From the IMG/VR virus record IMGVR_UViG_3300028800_001532: 32,290 nucleotides of DNA. One strand, 5' to 3'. Every line of letters begins with the position of its first letter. The first letter of the stretch is position 1. The translations under genes were made by a program, and so were the position numbers. The stretch is from a virus. Positions 1,136 to 12,268 of this stretch are shown one piece after another. The notes under the pieces were generated by a model. The model was not told the DNA's origin. It made no database searches and saw nothing but the letters and a program-made list of their open reading frames with translations.

Positions 1136-1186
1136 GTGCCTGGACTCGGCAGAGAATCGCCCCCACAACCCCGAGCGGGGCTAACG

Positions 1187-2212
1187 ATGGCCCGAACGGC
1201 GGCTAAGAACGCGGATCCCAAGAACTACTACGGGCTGCTCGAAGTGAGCCCGCGGGCGCGTGCTTCGATCATCAACTCGGCGTACCGCACCCTGGCCAAG
1301 GAAACGCACCCGGACAGCCCTGGGGGCGATCTGGCGCGGTTCAGGGCCATCACGGCGGCATACGACGTCCTCAGCAACGCCGACAAGCGGGCCGAGTACG
1401 ACACGGGATTGCGGCCGGGGGTCGGAACCGTCATCGGAAACTACGAGGTCGAGTCGGTCATTGCTGAAGGAGGCTTCGGCACGACGTACAAGGGCCGGCA
1501 CGTCATCACGGAGGAGCCTGTGTGCATCAAGCACTGCTCCGAGGTGTCGGTCATGCACGACGCGGTCTTGATTGCCGAGGCCAAGTCGATCTGGGACATG
1601 TGCCACTATGCGCTGCCCGCGATGCGGGACATGCAGCGGCTGGAGGACAACTCGCTGGCGCTCATCATGAGCTACATCCCGGGCCCGACGCTCGAACAGG
1701 TCGTCGAGAAGGCGGGCAAGCTCGAACCCGAGGACGTGGCGTGGATCACAGACCGGATCCTCAACGTGCTGCTCTACCTGCACCACCACGGGATCGTGCA
1801 CGGGGATCTCAAGCCACAGAACGTGATCGTGCAGCCGGACCAGCACAGCCTCGTGCTGGTGGACTTCGGTCTCACGCTGGTCAAGCCGACGTCCTCGACG
1901 AAGTCCATGGGGTACACGCCGTACTTCGCGCCCCCGGAGCAGATCGACGGCAACACGCTCTTGCCGGCCTCGGACTTCTACAGCCTGGGGATGATCATGA
2001 TCTACACTCTCTCGGGCGGGGACATGAAGGCGGTCGAGAAGCTCAAGGTGCCGACGACAGCGCCCGACGCCCTGTGCAGCTTCATCAAGAGGCTGATCGT
2101 CAAGGACGTGCTTGCGCGTCCGCAGGGTGACCTCTGGGAAGAGTTCCGCGAGGTGCGCAAGAAGGCGTTCGGTCGTGACCGCAGTGGTATGAAGCCCATC
2201 GCAGGGCTGTAG
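1187..2212 (+). CDS. DnaJ J-domain fused to a Ser/Thr protein kinase
   Basis: The N-terminus reads YYGLLEV...AYRTLAKETHPDSPGG...AAYDVLSNADKRAEYD, a J domain with an HPD motif. The kinase motifs are GGFGTTYKG, CIKH, HGDLKPQN, VDFGL and FAPPE. ATG 1187 is preferred over GTG 1136 because the first 17 codons from 1136 have low GC3. Confidence 0.8.
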   Translation: MARTAAKNADPKNYYGLLEVSPRARASIINSAYRTLAKETHPDSPGGDLARFRAITAAYDVLSNADKRAEYDTGLRPGVGTVIGNYEVESVIAEGGFGTTYKGRHVITEEPVCIKHCSEVSVMHDAVLIAEAKSIWDMCHYALPAMRDMQRLEDNSLALIMSYIPGPTLEQVVEKAGKLEPEDVAWITDRILNVLLYLHHHGIVHGDLKPQNVIVQPDQHSLVLVDFGLTLVKPTSSTKSMGYTPYFAPPEQIDGNTLLPASDFYSLGMIMIYTLSGGDMKAVEKLKVPTTAPDALCSFIKRLIVKDVLARPQGDLWEEFREVRKKAFGRDRSGMKPIAGL

Positions 2213-3198: not shown

Positions 3199-4050
3199 AT
3201 GAACATCATCCCCGTTTTCTTCACCCCCAAGATGGTGGCTGACTCGGAGTCAGCTTCACCCAGTGCTGCGAAGCCCTCGAAGGTCGTTGACTCGTGGCAG
3301 CGGAAGTTCCAGATCGCGGTCATCGAACCCGAACGGGTGACCATCGAGGAGTTCGCACGGGCGCACGATCGCCAGTTCGTGTTCGACATCCTCGGGGGTA
3401 AGAGGGCCAACGGCTTCGGCAACCACTCCCAAGCGGTTGCCGAGTCGCTGCCCTACACGTCGGGTTCGATGTTGTCGGCCGCTCGCCACGTGCTCAAGCA
3501 CGGGGGCGCGGCCGCAGCTCCGTGCTCGGGGTTTCACCACGCGGAGTACAGCAGCGCGATGGGGTACTGCACCTTCAACGGCCTGATGGTCACGGCGCTG
3601 GCCTTGAAGGAAGAGGGGCTCGCCAAGCGGGTTGGCATCCTCGACCTCGACATGCACTACGGCAACGGGACGGACAACATCATCGCCGCCCGCAAGGCGC
3701 ACGAGTGGGTCCAACACTTCACGGCCGGCGCCACCTTCATGTTCGAGAACCACGTGGAGGCGTTCTTCAAGCGACTGCCCGAGGAGCTGGACAAGATGAA
3801 GGACTGTGATGTCGTGCTCTACCAGGCAGGAGCCGACCCCCACATCGACGATCCCAACGGCGGCTGGCTCACGACCGAGGAGCTTCGCCAGCGTGACGCG
3901 GTGGTGTTCGATGCCCTCAAGGCGAGCAAGGTACCGGTCGCCTGGAACCTCGCGGGTGGTTACCAGATCGAGCCGGACGGCAGCATCCCCAAGGTGCTTG
4001 AGATCCACGACAACACCATGCGAGAATGCGTCAGAGCATTCGGTCAGTGA
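3199..4050 (+). CDS. histone-deacetylase / acetylpolyamine-amidohydrolase family (arginase-deacetylase fold) protein
   Basis: GFHHAEYSSAMGYCTFNG corresponds to the catalytic HH and the GFCYVND region. LDLDMHYGNG corresponds to DIDIHHGDG with its Asp and His Zn ligands. AGADPHIDDP supplies the third Zn Asp, and LAGGY corresponds to GGGGY with the catalytic Tyr. The gene starts 18 nt after the vWA stop. Confidence 0.8.
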   Translation: MNIIPVFFTPKMVADSESASPSAAKPSKVVDSWQRKFQIAVIEPERVTIEEFARAHDRQFVFDILGGKRANGFGNHSQAVAESLPYTSGSMLSAARHVLKHGGAAAAPCSGFHHAEYSSAMGYCTFNGLMVTALALKEEGLAKRVGILDLDMHYGNGTDNIIAARKAHEWVQHFTAGATFMFENHVEAFFKRLPEELDKMKDCDVVLYQAGADPHIDDPNGGWLTTEELRQRDAVVFDALKASKVPVAWNLAGGYQIEPDGSIPKVLEIHDNTMRECVRAFGQ

Positions 4051-8931: not shown

Positions 8932-9159
8932 TCAGAGCGGGAAGGAACCGGCCGGCACCTTGTCGCGCTCGAACTCGGCCAGGGCTTCCTTCTGGGTGTC
9001 GGTCGGCACCAGCAACCCGCAGGCGCAGGTGTCGATCGCCAGGTCGGCGGGGATCGTGAGCTTCGTGCCCTCAGCTGAGCGGGCATAGCCCGCGAGCTGA
9101 CGTCCGGGCTTGGCGACGGGGTGGATGTTGGTTCCGTGGCAGTTGGAGCAGGTCGGCAT
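8932..9159 (-). CDS. small zinc-ribbon protein (75 aa)
   Basis: The sequence carries CSNCHG ... CACG cysteine pairs. On the minus strand GGTGTA-N11-ATG precedes the start (TACACC at about 9171-9176). Confidence 0.45.
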   Translation of the reverse strand: MPTCSNCHGTNIHPVAKPGRQLAGYARSAEGTKLTIPADLAIDTCACGLLVPTDTQKEALAEFERDKVPAGSFPL

Positions 9160-9232
9160 GGCGGGGACTGTACACCTGTCCCCGTTCCAGGTCTAGCCTC
9201 AAAAGTTACCTCGTTCGGTGTACTGTAGAGGC
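9160..9232. promoter_or_regulatory. divergent promoter region with a GGTGTA element on both strands and a GGGGAC...GTCCCC hairpin
   Basis: On the plus strand GGTGTA lies at about 9217-9222, with N10 before ATG 9233. The minus-strand copy lies at 9171-9176. Confidence 0.5.
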
Positions 9233-9264
9233 ATGGTCTTCCACCGCGCCTATCAGGACAGCTG

Positions 9265-9933
9265 ATGATCTACCTCGGAACGACGAACAGTGACAAGGTC
9301 GCGGAGATCGCGGCGCTCCTCTCCCCGCTCCGGGTGGAGCTGAAGACGATCGCCCTCGATGTGCCCGAGACGGAGGACACCTTCGAGGGCAACGCGCGCC
9401 TGAAGGGGATCGCGTACGCGAAGCACACGGGCGGCATCACGATCTCGGAAGACTCCGGCCTCATCATCCCGGCCCTCGGGGGATTGCCCGGTCCGTGGTC
9501 GGCCCGCTTCTGCGACTGCATCCTCGATCTGGCCACCGGCAAGGTGTCTTCGGTGGCCGAGGTTCATCCTCGTGGGCGTGCCGAGATGGACGTGGTCAAC
9601 AACAACCGTGTCCTGGAGCTGCTGCGGACCAACTGGTTCACGAGAGAGGAACGCTTCAAGGCTCGTCCGGCGGCCGCGATGTTCAAGGTCGTCCTCGTTG
9701 TCGCTTCCCCGAGCGGGATCCTGTTTCAATCCTCAGGCGAGTGCCACGGGTGGATTGCAGAAGAGGCACGAGGGACCAACGGCTTCGGCTACGACTCGAT
9801 CTTCATCGGGCAGGACACGTTCGGCAAGACCTTCGCAGAGCTGGACACTCCCCGCAAGAACCAGCGGAGCCATCGCAAGCGTGTGCTCGACGAGCTGTTC
9901 ATGTGGGCTTCGCAGCATCGGGAGCTTCTATGA
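9265..9933 (+). CDS. Ham1/RdgB-family non-canonical purine NTP pyrophosphatase (ITPase)
   Basis: The N-terminus reads LGTTNSDKVAEI and the motif ISEDSGL is present, both typical of the Ham1 family. The protein has a roughly 30-aa C-terminal extension. Confidence 0.75.
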   Translation: MIYLGTTNSDKVAEIAALLSPLRVELKTIALDVPETEDTFEGNARLKGIAYAKHTGGITISEDSGLIIPALGGLPGPWSARFCDCILDLATGKVSSVAEVHPRGRAEMDVVNNNRVLELLRTNWFTREERFKARPAAAMFKVVLVVASPSGILFQSSGECHGWIAEEARGTNGFGYDSIFIGQDTFGKTFAELDTPRKNQRSHRKRVLDELFMWASQHRELL

Positions 9934-10898
9934 TCGTCATCGACGGCAACGACGGCATCGGCAAGTCCACCATCTGCAAGGAGCTGCAACAACGCGGCTA
10001 CAACGTCGTGGACCGTGGGCTGCCCACGAAGCTGACCGACAACCCGGACCTCGAACCGGACCCTGAGCGCTTCGACGATATCTACTGCATCCTCGACGCG
10101 CCCGTGGAGGTGAGCCGCGAGAGGCTTGCAGCTGCCGGCAAGGATATGAACGAGCACTGGCACACGGTGGAGACGCTCACGCACTACCGCAAGCGCTTCC
10201 AAGAGGTCTCCAGCTGGCTCGGGGTGCCGCTCATCGACTCTACGGGCACGAAAGAGCAGACCCTCGTCAAGGTGCTCAAGTATCTCGACATCAAGCCGAC
10301 AATCCGTGTCGGACTCCCGAAGGGCAGGCTCTTTGGGGTTGCCGACGAATGGCTCGGCAGGGCGGGCTACACGATCGACCCCAAGGGACGCAACTACCGC
10401 CCAAAGTGCTCGGACCCGCAGATCGAGCCGTTCATCCTCAAGCCCCGGGCCTTGCCGCAGATGGTGGCGCTCGGGCTGCTCGATGCTGCCATCACGGGCA
10501 AGGACCTCATCCAGGAGAGCATCTACTGCGGGCACCTTCATGTCGTGGCGAAGCTTCGAGAGCCGCGCGTGCGCATCTGCGTGGCAGCTAGCCCTCAGGG
10601 CACACCCAAGAGGGTGCCGGCTGTCGTCGCGACAGAGTTCCCCAACATCGCGAGCCGCTGGATGCTGGAACACGGGATCGCGCACGTCATCATCCAGACG
10701 TACGGGTCCACGGAAGCGTACGCGCCGGTGTTCGCCGACTACGTGGTGGACGTAGTGGAGACCTCGCAGACCCTCAAGGACAACGGTCTTGAGATCCTCG
10801 AAGAGGTGCTGGACAGTTCACCTGTGCTCATCACCCGCAAGAAGTCCGCTGCATCGCAACACCAGTTCACGCGAAGGATGTGGGAGACGGCGAAATGA
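9930..10898 (+). CDS. fusion protein with an N-terminal P-loop (nucleoside or nucleotide) kinase domain and a C-terminal ATP phosphoribosyltransferase (HisG short form) domain
   Basis: The P-loop reads MIVIDGNDGIGKST. The C-terminal half matches HisG in IRVGLPKGRL, LDAAITGKDL, and VVATEFPNI...YVVDVVETSQTLKDNGL. The start overlaps the Ham1 stop (ATGA). Track ORF 9495..10898 merely extends the frame upstream through the Ham1 gene. Confidence 0.7.
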   Translation: MIVIDGNDGIGKSTICKELQQRGYNVVDRGLPTKLTDNPDLEPDPERFDDIYCILDAPVEVSRERLAAAGKDMNEHWHTVETLTHYRKRFQEVSSWLGVPLIDSTGTKEQTLVKVLKYLDIKPTIRVGLPKGRLFGVADEWLGRAGYTIDPKGRNYRPKCSDPQIEPFILKPRALPQMVALGLLDAAITGKDLIQESIYCGHLHVVAKLREPRVRICVAASPQGTPKRVPAVVATEFPNIASRWMLEHGIAHVIIQTYGSTEAYAPVFADYVVDVVETSQTLKDNGLEILEEVLDSSPVLITRKKSAASQHQFTRRMWETAK

Positions 10899-11695
10899 GC
10901 CTGGACATCGACAAGCTGACCGACGCGCAGTTCGAGGCCCTTCCTCTGGTGGTCGAGGGGGAGAGCAAGATCGTGCGGGATGCCGGCAAGGGCTACGCGG
11001 TCATCAAGTTCAAGCCGACCATCTACTCCTTCACAAGCAACCGTACGGGGGTCGTGCCGGGCTCGGACGTGCTTCGCTTACGAGCAACCAAGGTTTTCGT
11101 CAGGGAGCTGCTGCGCAACGGGGTCGATCACTCGTACGAGGCCATCAACGATCGCTTCGTGCTCTCGCGCCTCATCCCCCGTCCCCCGCCGATCGAGGTG
11201 GTGGTCAAGTCGTACCACTCGGGCACGTCGAAGCACCGTTACGTGGGGATGACGGACCATTCCATCCGTCAGAGCCACCCCTTCTACGCCGGCAAGACCT
11301 TCGGTCCGGACGGTGGCTACCCTACCACCCTCGTGCGCTTCGACTGGCGCAACCCCATGTGGCACCCTGAGGACCAGAAGAAGATGCTGGCCGATGAAGT
11401 GCTCGGCGACGATCTGGCCGACTGGTACATCGACACGCACGTGGCGCGCAGGACAGCCCTCCAGACGCAGCGTATCCTCCAGGACTTCCTGGCGAATCGC
11501 GACGTCATGGTCTACGACCTGTGCCTGTTCATCACGGAGGACGGGCAGGAGGTCTTCGGCGAGATCAGCCAGGATTGCGGCCGTTTCCGGCACTTCGATC
11601 TCGGATCGCTCGACAAGGACGTCTGGCGTGCTGGGGGTTCGAGCGCAGTGGTGCTAGAGAAATGGAAGACCCTGCTCGACATCATCGAGAAGTAG
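10895..11695 (+). CDS. SAICAR synthetase (PurC)-like ATP-dependent ligase
   Basis: VVEGESKIVRD...IKFKPTIYSFTSNRTGVVPGSDVLR and PIEVVVKSYHSGTSKHR align to the PurC motifs GKAK..., FDxxG and VEVVVRNxxAGSLxKR. The start overlaps the previous stop (ATGA). Confidence 0.65.
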   Translation: MSLDIDKLTDAQFEALPLVVEGESKIVRDAGKGYAVIKFKPTIYSFTSNRTGVVPGSDVLRLRATKVFVRELLRNGVDHSYEAINDRFVLSRLIPRPPPIEVVVKSYHSGTSKHRYVGMTDHSIRQSHPFYAGKTFGPDGGYPTTLVRFDWRNPMWHPEDQKKMLADEVLGDDLADWYIDTHVARRTALQTQRILQDFLANRDVMVYDLCLFITEDGQEVFGEISQDCGRFRHFDLGSLDKDVWRAGGSSAVVLEKWKTLLDIIEK

Positions 11696-11701
11696 GAGTC
11701 C

Positions 11702-12268
11702 ATGAACTACCAAAGCAGCTTCAAGGTGCCTGCTGGCAAGGTGCCGAGCATCGTGCTCTGCAACCCTAAGAATGCCTATAATGTCTCGATGGTCCAACGC
11801 ATCGCCTCCTGCTACGGCTGGCAGCAGGTCTGGTTCACAGGCGACCGTGTGGGCCTGGACCTCGCGGGCAAGAAGCGCCTGCCCCGTGAAGAGCGGATGA
11901 AGGGCTTCAAGCAGGTCGAGATCGTCCAGTACGACCGACCCCTCGATCAGTTCAGCAAGGACGTGGTCCCTATCGCCGTCGAGGTCCGGGCGAACTCGGA
12001 GAAGCTGCACCAGTTCGAGCATCCGGACAATGCCGTCTATGTCTTCGGTCCCGAGGACGGGTCCATCCCCGAGGGGGTGCTGACGCACTGCCATCGGTTC
12101 CTCGTCATTCCGGTGAGGTTCTGCCTGAACCTCGCGACAGCGGTGTCCACGATCCTCTGGGACCGGGCGTACAAGCGGGGCGAGGTCCACGAGATGGAGG
12201 ACGCCAAGGCGTACGCCGAGACCGACACGAAGGCCATGGGGATCTACGACGAGCTGAGGCAGTCGTGA
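11702..12268 (+). CDS. SpoU/TrmH-family (SPOUT) RNA 2-prime-O-methyltransferase
   Basis: IVLCNPKNAYNVSMVQR, VYVFGPEDGSIPEGVL and LVIPVRFCLNLATAVSTIL match the three SPOUT motifs. Confidence 0.75.
   Translation: MNYQSSFKVPAGKVPSIVLCNPKNAYNVSMVQRIASCYGWQQVWFTGDRVGLDLAGKKRLPREERMKGFKQVEIVQYDRPLDQFSKDVVPIAVEVRANSEKLHQFEHPDNAVYVFGPEDGSIPEGVLTHCHRFLVIPVRFCLNLATAVSTILWDRAYKRGEVHEMEDAKAYAETDTKAMGIYDELRQS

Follow-up and report, generated by a model that had tools for sequence, protein, structure and literature searches.

A recurrent gene module joining early histidine-pathway enzymes to a PurC-like protein in viruses and bacteria: a probable PRFAR-branch pathway

The DNA considered here is a stretch of 32,290 nucleotides from IMG/VR virus record IMGVR_UViG_3300028800_001532 (the window, always meant at its full length). 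It is part of the 218,019-bp metagenomic contig ERZ27245399 k141_1829800, whose flanks were read at contig positions 1662-53080 (51 kb). Four genes at positions 9265-12268 of the window encode a Ham1-family pyrophosphatase, a kinase-HisG fusion protein, a PurC-like protein (PurCL) and a SpoU methyltransferase. The first three belong to a recurrent module that comprises seven activities only (HisG, HisE, HisI, HisA, PurCL, a mini-kinase and Ham1) and that is found as operons or as Rosetta-stone fusions of up to 1337 aa. This module is very probably a pathway that branches off histidine synthesis at phosphoribulosylformimino-5-aminoimidazole-4-carboxamide ribotide (PRFAR), and PurCL is the sole candidate in it for the step after PRFAR.

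The order HisG, HisE, HisI, HisA, ending at PRFAR, is given by gene content and repeated fusion. These four enzymes score above the Pfam/TIGRFAM thresholds, and in at least 11 loci (L007, L008, L010, L011, L013, L015, L016, L019, L021, L046 and L060) the gene next to HisG encodes HisA, HisI and HisE fused into one protein of about 400 aa (PF00977 + PF01502 + PF01503). HisA is retained everywhere HisI is present, which argues for the ketose PRFAR, and not for phosphoribosylformimino-5-aminoimidazole-4-carboxamide ribotide (ProFAR), as the substrate. An earlier note, made from the letters of this DNA alone, had supposed that HisG and the PurC-like protein meet at 5-aminoimidazole-4-carboxamide ribotide (AICAR, also ZMP). 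The two are linked via PRFAR instead, because HisA-HisI-HisE fusions occur in the same operons and polypeptides. The broader idea of that note, a module for making or modifying an unusual nucleotide, is strongly backed by the conservation of the operon and by the fusions across phages, giant viruses and bacteria.

Gene organisation and carriers of the module

All four open reading frames (ORFs) are present on the plus strand within 9265-12268, and the domains first assigned to them (Ham1, P-loop kinase plus HisG, PurC-like and SpoU) were borne out. The features of the locus are as follows:

9160..9264, no strand: upstream divergent intergenic region, between a minus-strand ORF (8932-9159) and Ham1
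9265..9933, plus strand: Ham1/RdgB-family non-canonical purine NTP pyrophosphatase, 222 aa (PF01725, E 1.9e-41)
9930..10292, plus strand: mini P-loop kinase domain, 121 aa, core of the nucleoside monophosphate (NMP) kinase fold (P-loop DGNDGIGKST; in the family DGNDGxGKST)
10302..10898, plus strand: short-form HisG (ATP phosphoribosyltransferase) domain (PF01634, E 7e-31; TIGR00070, 118.4 bits, cut-off 75.75)
10895..11695, plus strand: PurCL, PurC-fold protein, 266 aa (PF01259, 22.6 bits, cut-off 20); alternative GTG start at 10880
11702..12268, plus strand: SpoU/TrmH-family SPOUT methyltransferase, 188 aa (PF00588, E 8.8e-14, 52.2 bits, cut-off 29.7)

The Ham1, kinase-HisG and PurC-like genes are coupled by ATGA stop/start overlaps at 9930 and 10895, and the SpoU gene starts 6 nt past the PurC-like stop. 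The GC content of the window is 63%, and that at third codon positions in the four ORFs (0.83-0.88) supports the reading frames. The region at 9160-9264 is presumed to be the operon promoter region; a sigma-70 consensus was sought in it with no match. No other his or pur gene was found at contig positions 1662-53080. The four genes thus lie outside any his/pur operon, as had been proposed, and are not ordinary biosynthetic copies. Megablast of the locus against phage records gave no match, the module proteins match PHROGs by the P-loop only, and no module protein was matched by PADLOC models, the bare P-loop excepted. With its many small unannotated ORFs, few PHROG matches and unusual accessory genes, the contig is consistent with a jumbo phage.

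Searches (tblastn) with the window proteins revealed two main layouts. In one of them Ham1 is followed by the kinase-HisG fusion and PurCL (window, L002, L004, L005, L007 and L008), an order repeated in two bacterial metagenome-assembled genomes (MAGs) and in another phage-like contig. In the other one the order is HisG, PurCL, Ham1 and kinase (L009-L013, L016, L019, L020 and L025). Pfam analysis of ten long PurCL matches found only HisA, HisI, HisE, HisG, a TMK-like P-loop domain, PurCL and Ham1, in varied orders, such as HisA-I-E-HisG..PurCL (P0188), PurCL-Ham1..HisG (P0154) and PurCL-Ham1-kinase (P0156; the same arrangement is seen in L018). In a Pfam census of the flanks (104 ORFs from about 50 loci), no other family recurred, and in particular no dehydrogenase, transporter, regulator or effector. 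HisF, HisH, HisB, HisC, HisD, other pur genes and a reductase are absent from the module.

Cellular carriers were surveyed by means of a pattern scan for PurCL over one genome per species, which returned 45 loci. These come from Myxococcota, Blastocatellia, Planctomycetia, Bdellovibrionota/Oligoflexia and a Woesearchaeote, and, within the candidate phyla radiation (CPR), from Falkow-, Uhr-, Vogel-, Parcu- and Saccharibacteria lineages. PurCL proteins of lower identity are carried by Bradyrhizobium, Devosia, a Nostocales strain and a clostridial strain. Two loci with a distant PurCL show other compositions. In Anaeromicropila populeti (L045 8861-10177) the gene adjoins a mini-kinase fused to a HIT/DcpS-like nucleotide hydrolase domain, which may replace Ham1. 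In the cultured Nostocales cyanobacterium HT-58-2 (L039 8825-10353) it precedes the genes for a HAD phosphatase and a HisH-like glutamine amidotransferase, and the locus resembles another version of the pathway, one that possibly produces a nucleoside.

Regarding viruses, the consecutive genes HisG, kinase, Ham1, CoaD-like nucleotidyltransferase and PurCL are found in all 15 records of Lak megaphages (Prevotella phages of 540-550 kb and 25-27% GC). The CoaD-like protein, of the cytidylyltransferase family (PF01467, E 6.5e-17), is encoded between Ham1 and PurCL (L051 7426-7917 and L052 7398-7889), and this position hints that in Lak phages the pathway product may undergo further nucleotidylation. 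Among IMG/VR phages, one of 335 kb has the order Ham1/HisG/PurCL/HisA-I-E, another one (L070) encodes a 588-aa HisG-kinase-PurCL fusion, and a 481-kb phage (L071) has a single 1228-aa protein with the arrangement kinase..PurCL..HisA-I-E-HisG. HisG-kinase-PurCL proteins of about 780 aa were found in several MAGs of giant viruses (nucleocytoplasmic large DNA viruses). The closest relative of the window locus is L075 7437-10591, on the 536-kb contig GROS21-1 scaffold_8, which contains a stand-alone HisG, a HisA-HisI fusion without HisE, PurCL (76% identity), a 65-aa ORF and SpoU. The literature yielded no account of the module, whether in phages or in CPR.

The PurC-like protein and its partner enzymes

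The match of PurCL to PF01259 is confined to its N-terminal half, and the NCBIfam PurC equivalog gave no match. However, the AlphaFold2 model (mean predicted local distance difference test score, pLDDT, 88.9) has the PurC fold: Foldseek matched 38 PurC/PAICS chains at E<=1e-3, the best one being 2yzl (E 1.3e-16, template modelling (TM) scores 0.75/0.83), at about 20% identity to PurC structures. A family alignment of 34 members from various phyla and viruses contains about 70 invariant columns, and identity to the window PurCL is 59-76%. The corresponding HMMER profile, searched against 1.84 billion representative proteins (clusters at 50% identity), reached 379 clusters at E<=1e-3, 155 of them at E<=1e-30, and no canonical PurC among those representatives. 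Many of the matches are long (400-1337 aa). The clusters of ten distant relatives hold metagenomic proteins only, and tblastn of PurCL against plasmids returned nothing. With the exception of PurA in CPR, no pur gene lies near PurCL in the 51 kb of contig or in the flanks of the roughly 50 loci.

Profile alignment to PurC chains revealed that PurCL shares four ribotide-binding motifs with canonical PurC: EVVV(R/K), SG(T)S, EIS.D..R and LDKDV(F/W)R. In contrast, the Mg-ATP motifs are replaced, GK(A/T)K by GESK, DFKLE by DLCLF and (A/G)DE by FGE, and the three new motifs are invariant across the 34 family members. PurCL therefore has neither the two Mg ligands nor the two ATP-site lysines of PurC. 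The replaced positions correspond to K177, E179 and D191 of the E. coli enzyme, changed to C, F and G, with E179 and D191 being the Mg ligands; this numbering reportedly goes back to Ginder et al. in 2006. The earlier note had described the protein as an ATP-dependent, SAICAR-synthetase-like ligase, and that description has to be given up, since the loss of the Mg ligands and ATP-site lysines, all replaced by other invariant residues, shows that PurCL is not a SAICAR-type ligase.

PurCL further differs from PurC in being fused to His enzymes and in having additional invariant basic stretches (HSGTSKHRY, VRFDWRNP and GRFRH). From its motifs as a whole, PurCL is predicted to bind an AICAR-type ribotide with a second phosphate and to perform no ATP-dependent ligation. 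Two cysteines, C210 and C228 in window numbering, are also invariant and are candidate catalytic residues. They sit where PurC has an ATP-site Lys and the Thr/Ser beside the metal-binding Asp.

The kinase-HisG fusion protein (9930-10898, plus strand) has 322 aa, of which residues 1-121 form the kinase and 125-322 the HisG domain. The possibility of an assembly or frameshift artefact at 9930, raised in the earlier note, fails because the same architecture recurs in at least 11 independent proteins of 301-339 aa from other contigs, with 38-61% identity; in all, some 15 homologues conserve the fusion. The kinase domain contains a P-loop and a DRG motif and is 121 aa long, compared with 170-210 aa in a full kinase. 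Its matches to the Pfam models TMK (dTMP kinase), AAA_18 and CoaE are weak and below cut-off, as are those to NCBIfam kinase models, and it matches the thymidylate kinase phrog_761 with an E value of 6e-9. Foldseek searches with its AlphaFold2 model (pLDDT 93.7) best matched adenylate, dTMP and UMP-CMP kinases (E 1.6e-3, query TM score 0.57-0.72); this structural resemblance is weak because some 60-80 residues of a full NMP kinase are missing. The invariant residues are D5, G6, N7, D8, G9, G11, K12, T14, D28, R29, G30, R65 and H78. A PhnN-like role, forming phosphoribosyl pyrophosphate (PRPP), was also considered for the domain, which accompanies PurCL and Ham1 in loci that have no HisG (L018, L024 and L040). 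In the HisG domain, both the PKGRL motif and the PRPP loop D-x-V-E-T-(G>S)-x-T-L are present. HisZ or an aminoacyl-tRNA-synthetase-like gene was found neither in the window nor in the contig flanks or related loci, and the same is true of HisB, HisC, HisD, HisF and HisH.

Ham1 scores 123.8 bits against the TIGR00042 equivalog, under the cut-off of 145.35, because of an insertion of about 25 aa that is specific to the module and common to other module copies. When it was aligned to RdgB/ITPase structures of the PDB (3tqu), the catalytic EDSGL motif and the base-binding FGYD and SHR motifs were all found to be intact, so the window protein is predicted to be catalytically competent. Ham1 adjoins PurCL in most loci and is fused to it in L018, P0154-P0157 and P0024. 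A role as plain substitute for HisE was considered and downgraded, at least ten loci holding both HisE and Ham1. Kongming KomB, a HAM1-family dITP sensor in the conflict between phage and host over inosine nucleotides, has its catalytic Asp replaced by His and a SIR2 effector as partner (bioRxiv 10.1101/2024.12.20.629578). Although both proteins belong to the HAM1 family, window Ham1 retains the Asp (in EDSGL), has no SIR2 neighbour and gave no PADLOC match; at most, it could act against Kongming-type signalling.

The PRFAR branch, its known analogues and rival explanations

Two known systems come closest to the module, the kinase-HisG protein Cns3 and the biosynthetic clusters for pentostatin, coformycin and adechlorin; the earlier note mentions neither. 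The clusters, which belong to Actinomycetota, co-recruit homologues of HisG, HisA and SAICAR synthetase; their genes are PenA-PenC-PenB, CofB-CofA and AdeC/AdeL-AdeK-AdeA, AdeK being a HisA homologue present in some clusters (PMC12648386, PMC13055916). Apart from PenC, CofB and AdeA, no PurC homologue is known to act downstream of HisG and HisA. Ren et al. reportedly found in 2020 that CofB turns the branch-point intermediate into 8-ketocoformycin 5'-phosphate with no ATP consumed. In these clusters, as in the module, a dedicated HisG and a SAICAR-synthetase homologue are co-located outside his/pur operons, and for the module, too, it is proposed that an early intermediate of histidine synthesis becomes a nucleotide analogue derived from a purine. 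However, the module is devoid of the short-chain dehydrogenase (PenB/CofA), of a transporter and of the companion 'protege' nucleoside genes; it adds Ham1 and the mini-kinase as constant partners and carries its own HisA-I-E genes; and its carriers are viruses, CPR and predatory bacteria, not actinomycetes. An NAD(P)H-dependent short-chain dehydrogenase/reductase was not recurrent among the 104 flanking ORFs or present in any fusion; a lone saccharopine-dehydrogenase-like gene lies in L025. No CofB/PenC structure appeared among the sequence or Foldseek matches in the PDB.

In the fungus Cordyceps militaris, cns3 is needed for pentostatin production (PMC12648386). The kinase-then-HisG order of Cns3 is that of the window fusion protein, and its pathway yields a diazepine nucleoside, whereas its cluster is fungal and has no Ham1 or PurC-like gene, and the window kinase is a truncated core of 121 aa. 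Xia et al. are said to have described Cns3 in 2017 as an N-terminal nucleoside/nucleotide kinase domain followed by a C-terminal HisG domain. Among the 29 matches to the window fusion protein there is no close sequence relative of Cns3. With the early histidine pathway itself, the module shares the four families HisG, HisE, HisI and HisA, but it stops at PRFAR and its carriers are not expected to make histidine. What is already known is a histidine-pathway branch into a PurC homologue, at times with a kinase-HisG fusion, in actinomycete and fungal nucleoside-antibiotic clusters. What is new is the composition (Ham1 and mini-kinase, no reductase), the module's own HisA-I-E, the very large fusion proteins and the range of carriers (megaphages, giant viruses, CPR/DPANN and predators).

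In the proposed PRFAR branch, as gene content and the established biochemistry of histidine synthesis indicate, HisG would couple ATP (or dATP/ADP) to PRPP to form phosphoribosyl-ATP; pyrophosphate would be removed by HisE or, here, possibly by Ham1 or a host enzyme; HisI would open the purine ring to give ProFAR, and HisA would convert this into the ketose PRFAR. The window phage would have its HisE, HisI and HisA steps supplied by the host or by unseen parts of the genome. PurCL would then divert PRFAR from histidine synthesis through an ATP-free rearrangement like that of the PurC homologue CofB/PenC, and the loss of its ATP/Mg residues fits chemistry of this type. By analogy, the product may be a ring-expanded (1,3-diazepine, 8-oxo) analogue of IMP as the 5'-phosphate, released with ammonia and a four-carbon sugar-acid phosphate; this specific product is put forward tentatively, with somewhat less than even confidence. 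The kinase might lift the product NMP, or the adenine-nucleotide input, to the diphosphate, whereas the ITPase might return 6-oxopurine-like triphosphates to monophosphates and so set or limit the triphosphate pool. In viruses, episymbionts and predators, the product could interfere with adenosine/AMP/ATP deaminases or IMP-using enzymes of the host, which is speculative. It is rather unlikely, in our view, that the module is a self-contained coformycin-family pathway from ATP and PRPP, serving huge phages, giant viruses of eukaryotes, and bacterial episymbionts or predators as a weapon against host purine deaminases. In phages such a weapon would serve as anti-defence against immunity based on ATP/dATP/dAMP deaminases (RADAR, Cad1 and Kongming), and destruction of ITP/dITP by the ITPase would form a second line.

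Several observations weigh against the PRFAR branch or against parts of it. No CofA/PenB-type reductase was found in any operon, fusion or flank, so a true coformycin (8-hydroxy) product is not encoded. PurCL is likened to CofB/PenC as a PurC-related protein in a similar gene context, its orthology to them being conjectural, and the PurCL patterns recovered no Streptomyces locus. The PRPP loop of window HisG reads D-V-V-E-T-S-Q-T-L, with Ser for the conserved Gly in the window copy only. A kinase and an ITPase working on one nucleotide would oppose each other. Five loci (L018, L024, L026, L028 and L040) have PurCL, kinase and Ham1 only, and L075 has no Ham1 or kinase within 9 kb; the roles of kinase and Ham1 are therefore uncertain. 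Finally, the operons of five CPR loci (L012, L015, L016, L021 and L025) include a canonical adenylosuccinate synthetase, PurA (PF00709, E 1e-141 to 1e-152), and this fits IMP as the product at least equally.

Purine interconversion or salvage is considered unlikely as the function of the module, about as much so as the weapon. Here PurCL would have the carboxamide nitrogen of ProFAR/PRFAR attack the formimino carbon, and this ring closure would give IMP and a phosphoribosyl/ribulosyl-amine. The net effect would be to turn adenine nucleotides into IMP (and on to GMP), while Ham1 would clear any ITP formed and the kinase would feed or recycle adenylates. In favour of this scheme, PurA is encoded in the five CPR operons, no reductase is required, Ham1 retains ITP-type motifs, and the carriers (CPR, DPANN, predators and viruses) are salvage-dependent. 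Nevertheless, HisA would be superfluous for such chemistry and yet always accompanies HisI, a single deaminase would be a far cheaper route to the same end, and with PurA present the scheme becomes a futile cycle; moreover, the module is present both in the AT-rich Lak phages and in the window phage with its 63% GC, a distribution that does not follow the demand for G nucleotides. A synthase, a dNMP-kinase-like domain and an NTP pyrophosphatase form a classic trio, whose logic is that of the hydroxymethyl-dC pathway of T4 and of phage Z-base pathways. The module matches this trio, is enriched in very large viruses and, in the window lineage, has the SpoU methyltransferase beside it. A modified-base pathway would accordingly make a non-canonical purine (d)NMP that the kinase raises to a triphosphate for viral DNA/RNA, with the pyrophosphatase removing the competing nucleotide. 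We hold this to be improbable: many cellular genomes have the same module, those of Myxococcota, Planctomycetia, Blastocatellia and CPR, no polymerase, dATPase or glycosylase is recurrent in the flanks, and the 6-oxopurine-type motifs of Ham1 predict hydrolysis of a hypoxanthine-like product triphosphate and not of ATP. Nothing was found that points to the DNA hypermodification role suggested earlier.

Since PRFAR is a natural donor of AICAR, the module might also produce ZMP, its triphosphate ZTP or another signal, PurCL splitting PRFAR into AICAR without formation of imidazole-glycerol phosphate and the kinase and ITPase interconverting ZMP and ZTP. AICAR-type ribotides are ligands of PurC-fold enzymes, as in the structure of yeast PurC with AICAR (PDB 2cnq), and a kinase/pyrophosphatase pair would suit the control of a signal. 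On the other hand, PurCL lacks both a HisF-like fold and a glutaminase, the flank census showed no linked gene for a sensor or effector, there are no PADLOC matches and the Ham1 motifs are of the ITP type, all of which makes signalling highly improbable. The explanation that is hardest to credit is that of ordinary auxiliary metabolic genes, adjacent by chance, with HisG serving host histidine synthesis, PurC purine synthesis and Ham1 house-cleaning. HisG does score above the TIGR00070 equivalog cut-off, and huge phages carrying purine and pyrimidine genes provide a precedent (PMC7162821). Such augmentation of his and pur metabolism is, however, contradicted by the missing partners (no HisB, HisC, HisD, HisF, HisH or other pur genes in the module or the 51 kb of contig), by the replaced Mg/ATP residues of PurCL and its lack of an NCBIfam PurC match, by the failure of its profile to reach canonical PurC, and by the repeated fusion of the genes into single polypeptides.

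If the PRFAR branch is correct, a conserved and easily recognised gene set of approximately 380 clusters at 50% identity, many of them multi-enzyme fusions, would represent a new branch of the histidine pathway, carried by huge phages, among them the Lak megaphages of human and animal guts, and also by giant viruses, CPR/DPANN symbionts and predatory bacteria. Viruses would gain small-molecule biosynthesis, and the 'histidine' and 'purine' genes of organisms that make neither would be explained. Should the product be a weapon, this would be the first virus-encoded pathway of the nucleoside-antibiotic type, and a product that inhibits deaminases or IMP enzymes would bear on phage counter-defence and on nucleoside drug discovery. 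The question raised is the fate of PRFAR, which could be addressed with four or five purified enzymes and liquid chromatography-mass spectrometry.

The SpoU gene and other neighbours

The SpoU protein matches the TrmJ/TrmL equivalogs weakly, and no PDB sequence matched it. It had been counted as part of the module, but it follows PurCL only in the closest relative: the gene stands beside the module in the window and in L075, where it is 92% identical and more conserved than PurCL (76%), and is absent beside the module in all other loci. SpoU is thus a neighbour in the same transcription unit, outside the conserved module.

Other genes of the window encode proteins of diverse kinds. The protein of 1136-2212 (plus strand), a DnaJ domain fused to a Ser/Thr protein kinase domain, is strongly matched in PADLOC by PD-T4-6 and by mad6-type defence kinases (E 1e-33 to 1e-38). 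The gene at 3199-4050 (plus strand) specifies a member of the histone deacetylase family (PF00850, E 1.6e-29); in a Blastocatellia MAG, a Hist_deacetyl gene lies about 6 kb upstream of the module (L004 1409-2350). The 862-aa product of 22123-24711 (plus strand) contains domains of the major vault protein (MVP_shoulder, E 5.9e-28; Vault_3, E 2.2e-10), vault proteins being typically eukaryotic. Further downstream there are an ADP-ribosylglycohydrolase (28207-29427, plus strand; PF03747, E 1e-23) and a homologue of elongation factor Ts (31051-31713, minus strand; PF00889, E 6e-36). Upstream of the window on the same contig, L074 11843-12968 encodes a peptidyl-tRNA hydrolase (PTH2) and an AlkB-like 2OG-Fe(II) oxygenase.

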